IMG/VR virus record: IMGVR_UViG_3300029590_000018
DNA from: a virus
Length of the DNA: 43,042 nucleotides
Strand: one strand, 5' to 3'
The stretch's first letter is position 1; every line of letters begins with the position of its first letter. Under the pieces are notes generated by a model. That model was not told the DNA's origin. It worked only from the letters and a program-made list of their open reading frames with translations, and made no database searches. A program made the position numbers and the translations under genes. Below, piece after piece: positions 36,539 through 41,602 of the stretch.

Positions 36539-37836
36539 TGAGAGCAGCACTGTATATCCGCGTGTCGAGCGACGAACAGGCGCGGCATGGCCTGTCATTG
36601 CAAGAGCAAAGAGATGCGCTGACAAGATATGCCCAAGAACACAAAATGACCGTGGCGGGTATCTATGAGGACGCGGGAATATCCGCGCGAAAGCCGTATA
36701 AAAAACGTCCGGCGCTCCTGCGGCTGCTGGGCGATTGCAAAGTGGGGAAGGTAGACACGATCTTATTTATTAAGCTCGACCGATGGTTTCGAAATGTCGC
36801 GGGGTATTACGATGTGCAAACGCAACTCGACCAGTACGGCGTGACCTGGCAAGCGACGGAAGAGGACTACGAGACGCGAACCGCGTCCGGGCGATTAAAG
36901 GTTAATATCATGCTCTCCGTTGCGCAGGACGAAGCAGACCGCACAAGCGAACGAATCAAATTTATAAACGACGGCAAACGGGCAAAAGGGCAACCGGCAG
37001 GCTCAAAAGCGCCTTTAGGGTATGCCATCAAGGACAGGCAATACCAGATTGATAACGGCACGGTAGATGCGGCGCGAGATATGTTTGCCGCGTTTATCCG
37101 GCTAAAAAGTGTCCTTGCCGTAAAGCGATATATGCTTGATACATGGGGCATTGACCGAGCGTATAGCAAGTATGTAAACTATTTCCGTAACCGTCTTTAC
37201 ATCGGGGAGGTGTACGGAATCGAAAACGCCTGTCCCGCGCTGGTAAGCAAGCAGGACTTTGACCTTGTAACTGATATTATTCAGCATCGGTCACAACGCT
37301 GTGCGGGAGTTGACACAGATCGCGTGTATCTGTTTTCCGGGATATTGCGCTGCAAAGAGTGCGGGAAAACGATGCAATCGGAAACCGTAAAAAAAACATA
37401 TACATACTACCGATGCCGGACGCGGATGCTTGACAACTCCGCTTGCCCGCATACAAAAAGGATCCGAGAAGATGCGCTGGAAGACTACCTACTACACGAG
37501 ATGGAGGGAATCGCAGAACGGAACAATCGGTACTATAAAAAGGCAGATAAAAAGCCCACGCAAAGCGCGGACTCAATACGAAAGAAAATGGGCAAGCTAA
37601 AAACGCTATACCTAAACGATCTGATTGAGTTGGACGAATACAAGCGGGAGTATGCGAGCTTGAAAAAAGCACTTGAAGCTACGGAAGAAAGGCCAGAAAT
37701 CAATTTGGACGCGCTAAAAAAGGAGCTGCAAGAATACGAAACCTATTCCCGCGATGAAAAAAAGGAATTTTGGACGCGCTTCATCAGGCGGATTGATGCA
37801 GACAACGATGGCGCGTTTTTCGTAACGCCCCGTTAG
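36538..37836 (+). CDS. int: Large serine recombinase (phage integrase)
   Basis: MRAALYIRVSSDEQ catalytic-Ser N-terminus, recombinase domain, zinc-ribbon CKECG...C and C-terminal coiled coil. ATG at 36538 after GGAGGGGG. The ORF-track start at 36481 is upstream of the RBS. Confidence 0.9.
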   Translation: MRAALYIRVSSDEQARHGLSLQEQRDALTRYAQEHKMTVAGIYEDAGISARKPYKKRPALLRLLGDCKVGKVDTILFIKLDRWFRNVAGYYDVQTQLDQYGVTWQATEEDYETRTASGRLKVNIMLSVAQDEADRTSERIKFINDGKRAKGQPAGSKAPLGYAIKDRQYQIDNGTVDAARDMFAAFIRLKSVLAVKRYMLDTWGIDRAYSKYVNYFRNRLYIGEVYGIENACPALVSKQDFDLVTDIIQHRSQRCAGVDTDRVYLFSGILRCKECGKTMQSETVKKTYTYYRCRTRMLDNSACPHTKRIREDALEDYLLHEMEGIAERNNRYYKKADKKPTQSADSIRKKMGKLKTLYLNDLIELDEYKREYASLKKALEATEERPEINLDALKKELQEYETYSRDEKKEFWTRFIRRIDADNDGAFFVTPR

Positions 37837-37876
37837 GCATATTTTACCTTCACGGACATAAAGGACAAATATGCCT
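37835..37876. repeat. Inverted repeat AGGCATATTT-N22-AAATATGCCT abutting the integrase stop (attP candidate)
   Basis: Perfect 10-bp arms, read directly. Confidence 0.35.
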
Positions 37877-37911
37877 AAAAAATCCCCCGCCGTAAATGAC
37901 GGGGGATTTTT
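37877..37911. terminator. Bidirectional Rho-independent terminator
   Basis: AAAAAATCCCCCG(ccgtaaatga)CGGGGGATTTTT between the convergent integrase and the last accessory gene. Confidence 0.8.
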
Positions 37912-38231
37912 CACTTTTCCAGCTTGCGCATAACGCTGTTATACACTCGCTCGTTGACGACCTTCAAGCTGTCCATCAGCTCGTCCATGATCTCCCATGC
38001 CTTGTCCGGTGAAACATCTGCCACTGCGCGCAGGAAATCGCTGTCGCCGTATGTTTCGACGTTGACCGGCGCGGGCGCCGCGGAGTATGCCATTGGCAAA
38101 GCCCTCTCTCCGCTGCCGCTTTGCTGGCCACGGATGGCATACAGCACGGCAAGGCGCTCATAGTTTTTCCAGCTCGATTCTTCTGTCTCGAGGCGAGCTA
38201 TCCAGCGATTGACCTCATTCTCGTCGACCAT
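37911..38231 (-). CDS. Hypothetical protein (106 aa), accessory cassette gene 8
   Basis: ORF with RBS AAGGGGGTG. Confidence 0.6.
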   Translation of the reverse strand: MVDENEVNRWIARLETEESSWKNYERLAVLYAIRGQQSGSGERALPMAYSAAPAPVNVETYGDSDFLRAVADVSPDKAWEIMDELMDSLKVVNERVYNSVMRKLEK

Positions 38232-38246
38232 AGGGGCGCACCCCCT

Positions 38247-38600
38247 TTAGCCCTCGATCGTGTCCATGCAGCGCTGGATAGCTCTGCGGATGCTTTCATC
38301 GTCGGCGTTGTCCAGCATTTCCTGCAACTGGCGTTTCATGTTGTCGATTGCGCCGTCGCGGCTGTAGTGGCCGCGAACATAGTGCGTGCCGCGTCTGCTT
38401 CTACCGCGCATGTCGTACTCATCGCGGCGGCTGGAATAGCCGTCATCTTCCATCGCTTCGATTTTGTCGATGTTCTTGATGGTGCTCGCCAGCTTATGCA
38501 CGATGTCAAGATCGCCCGCGCCAAGCTCGCCCTTGCGAGTGATTTCTTCCAGCTCCTTGCAGAGCATGTCGCGCAGATCATACATAGATTTCATTCCCAT
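38247..38600 (-). CDS. Hypothetical charged protein (117 aa), accessory cassette gene 7
   Basis: ATG at 38600 after GAAAGGAG. Arg/Asp/Tyr-rich centre (RRDEYDMRGRSRRGTHYVRGHYSRD). Confidence 0.55.
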   Translation of the reverse strand: MGMKSMYDLRDMLCKELEEITRKGELGAGDLDIVHKLASTIKNIDKIEAMEDDGYSSRRDEYDMRGRSRRGTHYVRGHYSRDGAIDNMKRQLQEMLDNADDESIRRAIQRCMDTIEG

Positions 38601-38614
38601 TGTGTTCTCCTTTC

Positions 38615-39040
38615 TCAGCAAACTCTGGTAATGATAAGGTTCGCGTTTCTCACGTCAATGGCTTCGCCGCTCACGTTGCGGATGGACAGCGACGCGCAGC
38701 AGCCCTTTGTAACGTCAACGTACTCGGATGCCGCTGCGTTAAAAAACGCCTCCGCAGCCGTGGGCGTAACCGTCGCAACGGAGGACAGCAGGGGTTCACC
38801 GTCAACCGCAATGGCAACGGAGATGGGGCCTGGGGTCCCGCCGGTGCTTACGGCAATGTTGCCGATAAAGTCCACCTTGTAGCGGGCGCGGCACTGAGAG
38901 CAGTTGCCGCGAAGGTTAAACAGGCCGGAGCCTACCCGGTGAGTGATAAGGCCCTTTGTGCAGGGGATCGGTGCCTCGGTAAAAAGCACATTCTGATTTG
39001 CCGCCACAGTCTGCGTGGCAATCGCAGTGTATTCAGGCAT
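38615..39040 (-). CDS. C1q/TNF-like jelly-roll protein (BclA C-terminal-domain-like), accessory cassette gene 6
   Basis: 141 aa. The pattern TQTVAANQNVLF...ITHRVGSGLFNL.G...Y.V.F.GNIA...NANLIITRV resembles exosporium BclA C-terminal domain proteins. Assignment is from memory, not searched. Confidence 0.5.
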   Translation of the reverse strand: MPEYTAIATQTVAANQNVLFTEAPIPCTKGLITHRVGSGLFNLRGNCSQCRARYKVDFIGNIAVSTGGTPGPISVAIAVDGEPLLSSVATVTPTAAEAFFNAAASEYVDVTKGCCASLSIRNVSGEAIDVRNANLIITRVC

Positions 39041-39056
39041 AGAAAACTCCTTTCAT

Positions 39057-39088
39057 AAAATCAGCGGCAGGGCTATTGCCCCGCCGCT
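39057..39088 (-). terminator. Hairpin/terminator between cassette genes 5 and 6
   Basis: AGCGGCGGGGC(aata)GCCCTGCCGCT, an 11-bp stem with one G-U pair, then GATTTT on the minus strand. Lies immediately before the RBS of 38615..39040. Confidence 0.55.
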
Positions 39089-39169
39089 TTGGTTTAGTAT
39101 CGGCACGGGGCCGAACATTTTGTTGACGTTAACAAAACATTGCCAACAAAAAGCTATGCTATGCAGTTA

Positions 39170-39916
39170 TCAGCAGCCGCAACCGGATCCACATCCACCA
39201 TAGCCGCTACCCGCCCACGGGTTGCAGGTAATGTAAGCGGGAGAAGGGCACGGGCGAAGCTGCGAAATAAGATAGTTGTTCTGCGCAGACTGAGACGCCG
39301 CCAGACGCAGCTCCTGATTTGCACTCTCCAGATCGCGCATCTTGGAGTTGGTCAGGAAGTCCAGAATGGCGCGGCTGTTGGCGTTCTGATTCTCCACGAT
39401 GTCGCGGGTCGCGTTCTGCACCGTGTTGCGCGTGTCGCACGCCTGCGCGGCCATGTCGTAGCGCACGCCCTCGATGCTGCGCTGGGTGTTGCAGCAGCAC
39501 TCGGCGGCCTGCATCTGCATGGCGTTGAGCTGCTGCATCAGTGCGGCCTGCTGGTTGGCGCGGGACAGCTCCGCGGTCTGGAAACCGTTGTTCATGTTTT
39601 GGTTGACACCGGCAAAGCCGTTCAGCAGCGTGGTGTTCGCGGCATAGAAGCCATCGCACAGCCCACCGTTGATGAGATCCATCTTGCGCTCAATGTTGGC
39701 AAAATCGGAAGACAGCACATAGCCGTCTACCACGCCGCCGGAATTGCCGCCGTTGTTGCCCCAGCCGTTATTACCCCAGCCAAGGAAGGCAAACAGGAAC
39801 AGGATGATGATGAACCAACTGCCATTACCATCCCATCCAAAACCGCCGTTGCCGCCGGAGTTAGTGGGTGCCACGGGCATTGTCAGCATGGGAGCGCCGT
39901 CAGAAGAAAGAGACAT
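39170..39916 (-). CDS. Gly/Asn-rich membrane protein with Q/N-rich coiled coil and Cys-rich C-terminus, accessory cassette gene 5
   Basis: 248 aa. GGNGGFGWDGNGSWFIIILFLFAFLGWGNNGWGNNGG, central Q/N-rich region with an internal CCC, C-terminal GYGGCGSGCGC. Confidence 0.6.
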   Translation of the reverse strand: MSLSSDGAPMLTMPVAPTNSGGNGGFGWDGNGSWFIIILFLFAFLGWGNNGWGNNGGNSGGVVDGYVLSSDFANIERKMDLINGGLCDGFYAANTTLLNGFAGVNQNMNNGFQTAELSRANQQAALMQQLNAMQMQAAECCCNTQRSIEGVRYDMAAQACDTRNTVQNATRDIVENQNANSRAILDFLTNSKMRDLESANQELRLAASQSAQNNYLISQLRPCPSPAYITCNPWAGSGYGGCGSGCGC

Positions 39917-39947
39917 AGAAAAACTCCTTTCAGTTTTTTATTATCAA

Positions 39948-39961
39948 ATCGTGGCCACGAT
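39948..39961. promoter_or_regulatory. Perfect 14-bp palindrome ATCGTGGCCACGAT upstream of 39170..39916
   Basis: Read directly. Lies just upstream of a GATAAT -10-like hexamer on the minus strand. Confidence 0.4.
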
Positions 39962-39989
39962 ATTGATTAACCTAACAATTTAGCAAACA

Positions 39990-40040
39990 CTTTGCTTAAA
40001 CTTTGCTTAAACTTGCTTAAACTTGCTTAAACTTGCTTAC
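39990..40040. repeat. Five tandem 10-11-bp repeats (CTTTGCTTAAA x2, CTTGCTTAAA x2, CTTGCTTAC)
   Basis: Read directly. The period matches the helical repeat, and the last unit contains the stop codon of 40037..40237. Confidence 0.9.
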
Positions 40041-40237
40041 TGCATCAGGCTTTGGAACTGCTTCGCCATCTGCTGCAACTGGTTCAGCTGAGCTTGTGAG
40101 AGTTTCCCGCTCTGCAAGAGCTTTTCGACCTCTGCTTTGGGGTCTCCATGAAAATTTGCCTTGAACTGCTGGAACTGCTGCACCATCTGCATAAAGCCGT
40201 TGCCGCCGCCCATTGCACCGAAAAACGGATTATTCAT
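40037..40237 (-). CDS. Small Q-rich protein (66 aa), accessory cassette gene 4
   Basis: ORF with RBS AAGGAGGA. Sequence includes QMVQQFQQFKANFHGDPKAEVEKLLQSGKLSQAQLNQLQQMAKQFQ. Confidence 0.55.
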   Translation of the reverse strand: MNNPFFGAMGGGNGFMQMVQQFQQFKANFHGDPKAEVEKLLQSGKLSQAQLNQLQQMAKQFQSLMQ

Positions 40238-40640
40238 CGCTCTTTTCCTCCTTGTGCTTCTTGCCCTTCATTTCGCTCACAAGCGCCGCCAGCGCGTCGA
40301 ACTCTTTACGGGTCACATATTCCGCAGCGGGCGCTTTCTGCGCGTCAGGGGCGCTTGCAAGCCGCTCTACAAGGTCGTATACTTTGAGCGTCGGCTTGCC
40401 GCTTGCATCGGCCTGTTTCAGGTACACCGTGGGAGCCGTAGAATCCCACAGCGCCACCGCCGCATTGGGCGCGACCATCCAGCTTCTTGCCTCCTGTTCG
40501 CCGGATACCCACTGCACGCCGCTCTGCGGCAGAGGATTTTGCGGCATCGGCGGAATGGCCTGCATCTGCTGCTGCCTCAGCTGGGCAAGGTTGTCCTGCA
40601 TCGGCGGCATATAGGGGTTTCCGTAGTAAGGATAGTTCAT
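40230..40640 (-). CDS. P/Q-rich N-terminus protein with a globular C-terminal domain (136 aa), accessory cassette gene 3
   Basis: ORF with an ATGA overlap with the upstream gene. Confidence 0.55.
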   Translation of the reverse strand: MNYPYYGNPYMPPMQDNLAQLRQQQMQAIPPMPQNPLPQSGVQWVSGEQEARSWMVAPNAAVALWDSTAPTVYLKQADASGKPTLKVYDLVERLASAPDAQKAPAAEYVTRKEFDALAALVSEMKGKKHKEEKSDE

Positions 40641-41020
40641 GCTTCATCCGTCCTTTCCCAGTAATACAATACGTTCTCATTGCTGCTGTCCCAGCTGTCC
40701 CAGATCGTGCCATTTTGCACGCAGACCACATGACCGGACAGGGCCAGAATATAGGTGCCTACCGGGTGATCCTCCGCAAACTGTCCCACCGTGTAGCAAT
40801 CAGGGCAAGTGTCCGGCACGATGTACCGCCGGTATCCGATGCTGCGGAGATACCGGCCCCAGCAAGCATTTGCAGACGGCATATCGCCATCCAAATACCC
40901 TTCTATTGCAAGTGCAAGATACGTTGCGCCCCAGTCCATACCGGTGGCTTTCGATATGGCTCTGACGGTACAATCGCCTACATTTTTACCTCGTGGATTT
41001 CCATTGTAATAGCTATACAT
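40637..41020 (-). CDS. Hypothetical protein with possible papain-like Cys...His...Asp arrangement (127 aa), accessory cassette gene 2
   Basis: NVGDCTVRAIS (Cys), LSGHVVCV (His), WDSWDS (Asp). Fold assignment is speculative. Confidence 0.5.
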   Translation of the reverse strand: MYSYYNGNPRGKNVGDCTVRAISKATGMDWGATYLALAIEGYLDGDMPSANACWGRYLRSIGYRRYIVPDTCPDCYTVGQFAEDHPVGTYILALSGHVVCVQNGTIWDSWDSSNENVLYYWERTDEA

Positions 41021-41162
41021 ATTCGCGCCTATCGTCGTGGAAAAGCTCTACAATTCGCGCAAGGGAACGCAATCCAGCGGCGTCATCTTCGTATTGATTG
41101 CATATATCACGTGCCATATCCGCCGTATACCCACACATCAACAGCCGTTCCATTACGCTCAT
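41013..41162 (-). CDS. Small hypothetical protein (49 aa), accessory cassette gene 1
   Basis: Own translation: MSVMERLLMCGYTADMARDICNQYEDDAAGLRSLARIVELFHDDRREYV. RBS AAGGGGGTG. Overlaps the next start. Confidence 0.4.
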   Translation of the reverse strand: MSVMERLLMCGYTADMARDICNQYEDDAAGLRSLARIVELFHDDRREYV

Positions 41163-41198: not shown

Positions 41199-41242
41199 AA
41201 AAAAGACCCAACAAAGACCTTTTTCAGGCTCTTTGTTGGGTC
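41199..41242 (-). terminator. Rho-independent terminator after the lysis/regulator genes
   Basis: GACCCAACAAAGA(N12)TCTTTGTTGGGTC followed by TTTTTT on the minus strand. Confidence 0.8.
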
Positions 41243-41248
41243 TTTACT

Positions 41249-41488
41249 TTATGGGTTTTTGATATGGTCGGCAATCTTTTGGTAACCGTTGCGGCGGCGC
41301 TTCTTGACATACTCGACCGACGCAAACAGGCTGTTTGCCACCTGCTGTCTGGATTGTTGCTTGACGTCGCACGCGATGATGCAAAACGCCTCGTCTCCCG
41401 GAAGATCAAGCGCGGCGATGTAATCAATGGCACGCTGAGGGGCCATACTGCGCAGCTTTGCGCGGATGTCTCGGTAAGTTGTATTCAT
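41249..41488 (-). CDS. Small sigma-70 region-4-like HTH protein (79 aa)
   Basis: ...QVANSLFASVEYVKKRRRNGYQKIA resembles a region-4 / LuxR-type HTH. No obvious RBS; a TATAAT lies 4 nt upstream of the ATG. Confidence 0.45.
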   Translation of the reverse strand: MNTTYRDIRAKLRSMAPQRAIDYIAALDLPGDEAFCIIACDVKQQSRQQVANSLFASVEYVKKRRRNGYQKIADHIKNP

Positions 41489-41602
41489 GGCGATTATATT
41501 CGCCGTGGACTTGCGGAGCTTTGGCGGAAACAGGGGGTCGGCGCATCGTTGCCCCGGTTTCGTCCAGATTTTTAAACCCGTTACTTTGACGCTCTCTTCA
41601 CA

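Follow-up and report, generated by a model that had tools for sequence, protein, structure and literature searches.

Why should a phage carry, beyond its lysis genes and at the edge of its attachment site, eight co-oriented genes for which no phage function can be recognised? The question is raised by the viral record IMGVR_UViG_3300029590_000018 of IMG/VR, a stretch of 43,042 nucleotides analysed here at its full length and termed the window, in which the genes concerned, g1 to g8, form a cassette on the minus strand between positions 37,911 and 41,162. A sequence-only reading of the window had seen in this the classical position of a moron, or lysogenic-conversion gene, and had proposed from the composition of the proteins, and from a BclA-like domain in one of them, that they remodel the spore surface or cell envelope of the host. 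We find in the cassette a single copy of an accessory gene module that is widespread and mosaic among phages and belongs to the phage rather than to sporulation. Its core, g3-g4-g5-g6, is followed by g7/g8 or a DUF7841 protein, is often headed by a small helix-turn-helix (HTH) protein resembling sigma region 4, and sometimes includes g2 and g1. Because modules of this fixed order occur in many phages of gut and rumen bacteria, lytic phages and phages of hosts without spores among them, a spore-coat conversion cassette is very unlikely. The genes and the terminators that set them off are the following.

37877 to 37910: bidirectional terminator 3' of g8, a perfect 15-bp stem with A and T runs on both sides (-24.3 kcal/mol)
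37911 to 38231, minus strand: g8, an acidic protein of 106 aa, in other versions exchanged for, or fused to, a DUF7841 domain
38247 to 38621, minus strand: g7, a charged protein (phrog_28802) with an Arg/Tyr/Ser/Asp-rich middle and N- and C-terminal segments that look helical by eye
38615 to 39040, minus strand: g6, core member, a 141-aa stand-alone jelly-roll of TNF/C1q type and BclA_C kind, as judged from phrog_20016, AlphaFold2 (AF2) and Foldseek
39170 to 39916, minus strand: g5, the signature protein of the module, 248 aa (phrog_16490)
40037 to 40237, minus strand: g4, core member, a small Q/M-rich protein of 66 aa (phrog_22984)
40230 to 40640, minus strand: g3, core member, 136 aa, with a P/Q/Y-rich N-terminus (phrog_21718)
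40637 to 41020, minus strand: g2, facultative member, a predicted minimal papain-like Cys-His-Asp enzyme of 127 aa with a CPxC knuckle (phrog_3754)
41013 to 41162, minus strand: g1, a helical peptide of 49 aa, variable and missing from many module versions
About 41199 to 41243, minus strand: intrinsic terminator between g0 and g1, with a stem of about 19 bp and a U-run (-29.0 kcal/mol)
41249 to 41488, minus strand: g0, a 79-aa protein resembling sigma-70 region 4 (HTH), with weak NCBIfam alignments to the sigma-factor C-terminal region

The minus-strand open reading frames confirmed all eight genes where they had been described, together with the peptide strings quoted from them and both flanking terminators; the start of the unit had to be moved, one gene earlier, to g0 (41249-41488). 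Their richness in Asn, Gln and Cys was likewise borne out by comparison with the phage's own proteome: Gln plus Asn make up 28.8% of g4, 18.1% of g5 and 12.5% of g3, against 6.9 ± 1.65% in the 34 other genes (maximum 11.0%), and Cys accounts for about 4% of g1, g2, g5 and g6, against 1.6 ± 1.4% elsewhere in the genome. The GC content of the cassette, 0.55-0.58, is that of the rest of the phage, and around it lie commonplace phage genes, for an Amidase_3+SPOR endolysin, a holin and a large serine recombinase. The remark that no phage function is recognisable also holds. Scans of g1-g8 with Pfam, NCBIfam and PADLOC gave nothing meaningful—no sporulation family in Pfam or NCBIfam and, with g0 included, no PADLOC match at E ≤ 0.01—and the six PHROGs families into which g2-g7 fall are all labelled "unknown function". 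Reading of the sequences revealed a signal peptide in no member of the cassette; Firmicutes keep cysteine out of exported proteins, and the high Cys content thus fits assembly in the cytoplasm. Matches to a promoter consensus within the cassette were weak only.

That these genes form a unit is evident from their distribution. Lack of conservation as a block in related prophages had been named at the outset as what would tell against the cassette; the block is kept, g2-g3-g4-g5-g6-g7 being collinear in 80/80 IMG/VR loci found with g5. Within this order identity is mosaic from gene to gene: g5 at 100% may stand beside g6 at 50%, g6 at 91-96% beside g5 at 72-76%, and alleles of g7 and g8 are 40-70% identical, in the case of g7 even next to identical g5. 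Database relatives of g5 number at least 7865 at E ≤ 0.001, and the identical protein is found on at least 1000 contigs. It is accompanied by g3 in 103 of 107 loci, and a small g4-equivalent gene lies between the g3-like and g5-like genes in every distant locus read. Iterative searches and reading of open reading frames extended the core to low-GC Clostridium, Lachnospiraceae, other Clostridia and Selenomonas contigs, in the order g3-like, g4-like small protein, g5, small Cys-bearing beta protein, then a charged or DUF7841 protein, and this order, g3-g4-g5-g6 plus g7/g8 or DUF7841, was constant in every relative examined. In all g5 genome loci whose flanks were read (L011, L014, L017 and L018 being left out; L numbers denote loci), module or phage genes adjoin.

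Two cultured phages carry the module. In Butyrivibrio virus Ceridwen all seven families g2-g8 are present (E 1e-14 to 1e-53, confirmed with local hidden Markov models), in the order lysin, small membrane protein, small HTH, terminator, g2, g3, g4, g5, g6, an inserted gene c6 that matches no module family, g7, g8; lytic growth alone was observed for this phage and its authors judged it virulent (PMC7372960). The Clostridium perfringens phage CPD1 has g3-, g4-, g5-, g6b- and g8-like genes. Full-length g5 homologues are found as well in three subfamilies of the crAss-like Suoliviridae, annotated 'spike protein/glycoprotein', where the order is again constant: holin, LysB-like, DUF7841 protein, g5-like, small protein.

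One member of the Suoliviridae, cr115_1 (L108/L121, NC_055898.1), offers an indication of timing. Its early and replication genes, as far as sampled, are free of in-frame TAG codons, which most of the sampled structural and lysis genes contain; the major head gene and the DUF7841 gene have none. Within the module there are 2 in the g5-like gene, 1 in the gene after it and 6 in the one beyond, so that besides the g5-like gene two out of its three neighbours in the module bear them. Recoded phages read TAG through only late, and if that is so here the TAG-bearing module genes are late genes. The position of the module is often consistent with this: it directly follows the lysin in the phage of the window, in L015, in L143 and in Ceridwen, and the holin and LysB-like gene in Suoliviridae, and in L008 it lies between the tail fibre and the holin-lysin pair.

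How firmly it is held in its slot was estimated from the lysin side, by searching IMG/VR for relatives with a lysin at least 76% identical and sufficient downstream sequence. The window-type cassette is present in about 22 of them, and in about 25 the slot is filled by a second version (small HTH, g3-like, g4-like, a g5-like protein of 199 aa, a g6-like protein of 146 aa and a DUF7841 protein, then a tyrosine integrase); 2 have a truncated one, and 5 have no module at all, a recombinase or other cargo coming immediately after the lysin. The module is accessory and replaceable by its own alleles, yet strongly retained.

Where the prophage ends fall bears directly on sporulation. Comparison of the window with integrated copies showed that identity ends inside the attachment site.

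37835 to 37876: attP of the serine integrase, 42 bp, with 10-bp perfect inverted-repeat arms AGGCATATTT ... AAATATGCCT, the right arm overlapping the integrase stop codon

In the integrated copies host DNA begins 60 bp past the g8 stop codon. At the cassette-side junctions (L020, L021, L023, L024, L026, L027) the host sequence reads ...S/AKGKPTNSEFIAMIADRLQLQRKQQRA and then stops (the slash marks the junction), at the integrase-side junctions (L115, L116, L118, L119, L120) a Response_reg+Spo0A_C gene runs into the phage arm, and the cassette-side host DNA and integrase-side spo0A were found in the same contigs. The cassette, which had been called integrase-proximal, is so in the circular form only; in the prophage it and the integrase stand at opposite ends, attP lying between g8 and int. 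The host is an uncultured Oscillospiraceae bacterium, and integration exchanges the last 27 residues of its Spo0A (...VNS/AKGKPTNSEFIAMIADRLQLQRKQQRA) for six encoded by the phage, VKVKYA. The truncated protein covers positions 1-90 of the 104 in the Spo0A_C profile and the lost part positions ~90-104; once the two are rejoined the match spans 1-104 and its score goes up from 127 to 158 bits. The database contains Spo0A in both forms, intact with 274 aa and truncated with 253 aa, the latter ending ...VNSVKVKYA and present on 225 contigs. In Bacillus the C-terminal helix of Spo0A is required for function, and the lysogens therefore probably cannot initiate sporulation. That spo0A is broken whenever the cassette is integrated argues against a role at the spore surface.

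Serine-recombinase elements inside a sporulation gene have precedents in skin (sigK), SPbeta (spsM) and the yin element (yabG), a likeness that concerns the integration site and not the cassette, and exact restoration of the gene on excision is expected here as for elements of that type. Unlike them, the element in the window looks like a complete phage, and its target, spo0A, is the regulator of entry, so that mother-cell-specific excision could not rescue sporulation in the usual way. Two other junctions were noted. In L025 (12006-12740) the cassette end stands head-to-head with the 5' part of spo0A (...VNS/IKDKYA, then stop), in opposite orientation, the junction being 4 nt shorter than simple inverted integration predicts; in L117 (7300-9850) the integrase end abuts a MalT/GerE-type gene, not spo0A.

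What the proteins might do is best approached through g6, for which the comparison with C1q and BclA proved right at the level of fold. Its AF2 monomer model is all-beta, with a predicted local distance difference test score (pLDDT) of 92.5 and a predicted template-modelling (TM) score of 0.86, and it conforms to the ten-strand jelly-roll beta-sandwich of TNF type. Foldseek returned 111 PDB matches at E ≤ 0.001, including F-BclA, ExsF, BxpB, BclA, EDA, 4-1BBL and C1q. The best was the C-terminal domain of F-BclA, 9h38 (E 1.6e-7, query-normalised TM 0.68-0.74), and the group to which it belongs, F-BclA C-terminal domain, ExsF/ExsFA/BxpB (9h3d, 7r1m, 8d02) and BclA (1wck, 2r6q), spans E 1.6e-7 to 1.5e-5 and query-normalised TM 0.66-0.76; TNF ligands and C1q heads come after, with EDA the best match from outside spores. 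Pfam BclA_C (PF18573) gave no match to g6 itself at E ≤ 1. The L015 homologue, which like g6 matches phrog_20016, scored 35.8 bits (E 8e-9), just below the gathering score of 38 bits.

For g6, as for g2, the protein database was queried with alignments of homologues from the fetched loci. The profile search, over 1.84 billion representatives, put the g6 family at 887 representative clusters at 50% identity (E ≤ 0.001), with lengths of 83-196 aa among the best 150 of the 887; Cys50 and Cys114-Cys115 are invariant. The best structural matches in BFVD are also stand-alone proteins, of 130-145 aa, from uncultured phages labelled Siphoviridae, Podoviridae and Myoviridae (two are named "BclA protein"), and in the next ones the fold forms the C-terminal part of larger proteins annotated as collagen-like, tail fibre or neck whisker. 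A tandem-repeat scan and inspection of the sequences found no repeats in the 141 aa of g6 and no GXY repeats, the mark of a collagen-like stalk, in g5. The g6 family is a phage family of free-standing heads. Some lineages have a different small Cys-rich protein in place of g6. The g6b proteins of L012, L013 and CPD1 were considered as Ena/DUF3992 subunits, and gave no Pfam match.

With the BclA_C family (B. anthracis BclA, B. thuringiensis F-BclA; TNF/C1q superfamily) g6 shares the jelly-roll, and many of its relatives, by eye, the '...ERVA'-type ending, g6 itself ending ITRVC; unlike BclA it stands alone, without a collagen-like stalk or an exosporium-targeting N-terminal domain, and unlike members of BclA_C it has invariant cysteines, is encoded by phages, some with hosts that make no spores, and does not itself match PF18573. 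By structure g6 also resembles ExsFA/BxpB (ExsF), the anchor of the exosporium basal layer in the B. cereus group, which is likewise a stand-alone TNF-like protein of about 150 aa and whose structures 8d02, 7r1m and 9h3d are among the top matches. In 9h3d ExsF binds the N-terminal peptide of the fibre protein F-Anchor, which by analogy might serve as a working model for g6 binding the tail of g5. Unlike ExsFA/BxpB, g6 belongs to a phage module and not to a sporulation regulon, and no partner of ExsY/CotY type was detected. Type II membrane TNF ligands such as EDA-A1 supply a third comparison: their N-terminal anchor, stalk and C-terminal TNF-homology trimer would be mirrored by g5 and g6 taken together, with the difference that the layout is here split over two genes and that g6 has no export signal.

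The other half of this comparison, g5, contains the sole strongly hydrophobic stretch of the cassette (Kyte-Doolittle 2.36 over 15 residues, exceeded by just two other genes of this genome). The single span is flanked by Gly, Asn and Trp and followed by a Q/N-rich middle, helical-looking by eye and bearing an invariant CCC, then RPxPxPAY and a C-terminal cluster of Cys of CGC type. In very distant members the invariants are the hydrophobic span followed by GWGNNGWGNNGG, GLCDGFYAxNT, CCC with a further Cys, AASQxxQN, RPxPxPAY and the terminal CGC-type cluster; the span and its GWGNNGWGNNGG flank are the features best conserved across phyla. Neither the single sequence nor the family profile matched PDB, and Pfam scans of individual members yielded scattered single weak matches. 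Matches of the profile to coronavirus spike HR1 and to HEF2 (E 0.35-0.5) were weak and were not counted as evidence, though they are probably the source of the crAss annotation 'spike protein/glycoprotein'. The N-terminus was also considered as a YjcZ-type sporulation peptide, which NCBIfam did not match.

The Cys...His...Asp arrangement pointed out in the 127-aa protein, g2, is borne out by conservation: all 82 homologues have Cys17, His97 and Asp108, together with Asn6 and Pro9, and Asn8 is at least 90% conserved. In the AF2 model (pLDDT 92.9) a helix begins at Cys17 and strands run from His97 (97-102) and up to Asp108 (105-108), an order and arrangement of residues that, as modelled, are those of papain-like and transglutaminase-like enzymes. 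No sequence match was found in Pfam, NCBIfam or PDB, single-sequence PDB searches with g2, g5 and g6 producing only chance matches such as antibody light chains and LHCI. Relatives of g2 stand alone in Tsamsa-like Bacillus phages, Geobacillus GBK2 and Lak megaphages, some annotated 'putative peptidase', so that g2, as the model predicts it, is a small enzyme widespread in phages and only an occasional companion of the module. A precursor peptide of the RiPP (ribosomally synthesised and post-translationally modified peptide) or bacteriocin kind with g2 as its C39-type leader peptidase was considered and dropped, there being no double-glycine leader consensus and no modification enzymes.

We suggest, with a probability of roughly 0.4, that the module is expressed during the lytic cycle, close to or together with the lysis genes, and that its proteins assemble into a complex at the cytoplasmic membrane. 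In such a complex g5 would serve both as anchor, through its one hydrophobic span, and as stalk, long, helical and rich in Q/N, with Cys-rich ends, and g6 would be a trimeric head or adaptor of TNF/C1q type, which might bind the g5 tail as ExsF/BxpB binds fibre peptides or cap it as the BclA C-terminal domain caps its collagen stalk. Lacking signal peptides, g3, g4, g7 and g8 would be partners in assembly or scaffolding in the cytoplasm; g2, if the modelled enzyme is real, could trim or cross-link a component; and a terminator-like element of three hairpins between g5 and g6 would set the ratio of g5 to g6-g8. Assembly would take place late in infection, at the inner face of or across the cytoplasmic membrane. 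ExsY and the Ena proteins are made in a mother cell destined to lyse, and by analogy the Cys-rich parts might cross-link only after release. The complex could serve in lysis or in a step that follows it, mask the envelope, or make debris or particles adhere. Expression in the lytic cycle is favoured by the virulence ascribed to Ceridwen (PMC7372960), the TAG pattern of cr115_1 and the frequent adjacency of lysis genes.

Several observations weigh against this proposal. With hardly any charged residues flanking the span on either side, the topology of g5 is ambiguous, and its helical or coiled-coil character was judged by eye. Alleles of g5 and g6 recombine independently, so that any contact between the two would not be allele-specific. 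The best match of the g2 model in PDB by Foldseek was not significant (E 0.23), the weak list containing Josephin-2, PLpro, CHAP, PaTox, TssM and a USP-like deubiquitinase. Close relatives without the module (L168, L171, L179) or with a deleted version (L124) show that it is dispensable. In CPD1 it is found about 3 kb past the holin, ahead of replication genes, in the window a strong terminator parts it from the late operon, and its position at the prophage end with a putative regulator of its own would suit expression in the lysogen equally well.

The same parts could instead make an accessory of the virion, with g5 as trimeric stalk and g6 as head forming a fibre or decoration on capsid, neck or tail, dispensable like the phi29 head fibre or T4 fibritin, and the other genes serving as chaperones. 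Such a fibre would explain why the g6 fold occurs in BFVD as the C-terminal part of larger tail fibre, neck whisker and collagen-like proteins, why the crAss-like homologues adjoin virion structural genes and carry in-frame TAG as these do, and why the module can be dispensed with; and phages that are otherwise nearly identical differ deeply in their alleles of g6, g7 and g8, a pattern like that of receptor-binding proteins undergoing turnover. We nevertheless think it unlikely, since the best-conserved feature of g5 is a membrane-type hydrophobic span, unusual in a fibre shaft, and since in none of the Firmicutes phages examined is the module placed among the head genes or the tail genes; here it lies past the lysis genes and a strong terminator. 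Less probable still is a dedicated role in lysis, in which g5 would act as an i-spanin-like protein or lysis regulator, completing or timing the disruption of the envelope. Holin or lysin genes do neighbour the module in several unrelated lineages, and i-spanins such as lambda Rz and P2 LysB share with g5 the N-terminal anchor, helical ectodomain and conserved cysteines as well as the holin/endolysin neighbourhood; but the hosts are mostly monoderm, with no outer membrane to fuse, no lipoprotein partner of o-spanin kind and no lipobox protein is present in the module, crAss-like phages already have a separate LysB-like gene beside it, close relatives that keep the same lysin dispense with it, and the TNF-like head and four soluble partners would be left without explanation.

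Expression from the prophage leads to quite different proposals. Under control of the small HTH protein, a g5-g6 structure at the envelope of the lysogen might block other phages or alter adhesion, and in location the cassette fits: like morons, of which toxin genes of streptococcal and staphylococcal prophages are examples, it fills the slot between lysin and attachment site, at the prophage end, bracketed by two strong terminators. It is accessory in its lineage, relatives with a 76-77% identical lysin being without it, its g6, g7 and g8 alleles are diverse, and some version of the module occupies the lysin-integrase slot in ~85-90% of lineage relatives, whatever the type of integrase. The classical position thus stands. 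The other marks of a moron, sporadic, foreign and confined to temperate phages, do not: this is a multi-gene unit whose order is fixed across phyla, its base composition is that of the rest of the phage, the full cassette is present in a phage reported as virulent, Ceridwen, the crAss-like copies mostly carry in-frame TAG like structural and lysis genes, and no PADLOC defence family matched. Lysogenic conversion or superinfection exclusion seems to us a rather poor prospect, on a par with the virion fibre. That the module remodels the lysogen's spore coat or exosporium, g5 supplying a Cys-rich lattice and g6 an exosporium protein like BclA/BxpB, is scarcely credible. It would account for the solved structures closest to g6 being the exosporium and spore-appendage proteins F-BclA, ExsFA/BxpB and BclA, for a Cys-, Gly-, Asn- and Gln-rich composition like that of coat proteins, and for the absence of signal peptides, as in proteins assembled in the mother cell; and the host does encode Spo0A. 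Against it, the same genes in the same order are found in Ceridwen, C. perfringens phages, a Selenomonas contig and Suoliviridae, and Butyrivibrio, Selenomonas and Bacteroidota hosts are not known as spore-formers. One carrier is apparently virulent, all g5 genome loci with flanks read are phage contexts, no member matches a sporulation family of Pfam or NCBIfam, and integration splits spo0A, leaving the lysogen unlikely to enter sporulation while it carries the cassette.

The proposal of a late membrane complex can be taken one step further, to a more specific version that we hold only tentatively. The module would then be an undescribed multi-protein system of phages of strictly anaerobic gut and rumen bacteria from two phyla, Firmicutes siphophages at one end and crAss-like Suoliviridae at the other, and would make a late, membrane-anchored, Cys-cross-linkable fibre or lattice with a TNF/C1q head, acting at or after lysis. 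In this speculative form it would correspond, on the phage side, to the nap of the exosporium, made in a cell about to lyse, and might coat debris or particles, tether them, or control release. As a corollary, it is possible that spore BclA-type heads and phage g6-type proteins share ancestry.

Regulation within the cassette may involve three non-coding elements.

39057 to 39151, minus strand: three-hairpin RNA element between g5 and g6, the last hairpin GC-rich and followed by a U-run, resembling an intrinsic terminator or attenuator
39948 to 39961: perfect 14-bp palindrome ATCGTGGCCACGAT, followed by TTGATAAT, about 25 nt upstream of the g5 start and just before the ribosome-binding site
39988 to 40038: tandem 10-bp repeat AAGCAAGTTT of five units, beginning in the g4 stop codon

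The three-hairpin element is supported by covariation: about 93.3% of cells are paired, as against 38-52% with slid partners, there are 28 double-change cells as against 4-10 in slid controls, and in hairpin 1 all 6/6 pairs covary. It probably attenuates the transcript, or stabilises its end, after g5. It may in addition be a recombination boundary for the shuffling of alleles, because it is more conserved than the genes that flank it. An Rfam scan of the region left it unmatched, hitting only the terminator hairpin, as a spurious miRNA. The 10-bp repeat, present here in five copies, has 4, 3 and 2 in the near-identical phages L025, L031 and L037, and a different repeat unit is found at its site in another clade; it may tune expression of g5. 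The palindrome ATCGTGGCCACGAT is conserved in most window-type loci, and a third clade has a different, GC-rich palindrome at the same spot. It is possibly an operator or promoter, perhaps for the g0 protein, or else a small RNA hairpin. Lying between lysin and module, g0 precedes the module in 61/107 loci, analogous small HTH reading frames occur in L010, L013, L143 and Ceridwen, and it is a candidate regulator of the module. A perfect TATAAT hexamer is found 4 nt before the g0 ATG (41490-41500, minus strand), without a Shine-Dalgarno sequence, and g0 may be translated from a leaderless transcript.

Of the remaining small proteins, g3 has a conserved central segment, beta-rich by eye, and a helical-looking C-terminal segment (EYVTRxEFDAL). 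A family-profile search of PDB and Pfam scans of its individual members gave no match beyond scattered single weak ones in Pfam, and as a GerQ/YppG-like coat protein it was rejected, the match to YppG being merely E 0.57. Gene calls of related contigs indicate that g7 probably starts at the ATG at 38600 (117 aa). In many module versions the place of g7/g8 is taken by the DUF7841 (PF25223) domain, with the motif (N/E)ADG(T/S)xGPHW, for example in L013 (11135-11530), L015 (11151-11720), L143 (9807-10283) and cr115_1 (L108: 2741-3376), and in the g8 variant of L090 the g8 N-terminus is joined, by eye, to sequence with the NADGTTGPHW motif of DUF7841 proteins. In crAss-like phages DUF7841 proteins are annotated 'RNA polymerase sigma factor/ubiquitin-like protein'; a literature search for DUF7841 returned no papers.

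Two observations concern gene exchange outside the module. The slots after the lysin in the module-less L179 (8022-11063) and L168 (7867-9444) hold, one a 1013-aa protein, the other a 525-aa serine recombinase. Among the near-identical phages L020-L027 the last tail genes before the holin have been swapped, the variants comprising a Pect-lyase protein, a GDSL lipase, a Y_phosphatase3 protein, a collagen-like protein of 803 aa and an inserted RHH antitoxin-like pair, which suggests that receptor-binding genes turn over rapidly in these phages.

Literature searches on prophages and BclA or the exosporium brought up nothing about this gene set. The fold of g6 and, apparently, the kind of enzyme that g2 is are known; for the g5 family, and for the module taken as a unit, no described counterpart was found, and the module is best grouped with the C1q/TNF-headed fibre or anchor assemblies of spores and viruses. 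With Ceridwen and CPD1 as cultured carriers the question of what it does is directly testable. The insertion of an abundant Oscillospiraceae prophage in spo0A suggests a reversible, phage-controlled sporulation switch in a gut commensal. A BclA-C/ExsF-like fold in a phage-only context bears on the origin of the heads of spore-surface fibres. Finally, PHROGs families of "unknown function" prove to be one co-inherited unit, very common in the human gut and spanning Firmicutes and crAss-like phages, and a known function for it would annotate a sizeable block of the dark matter of the gut virome.

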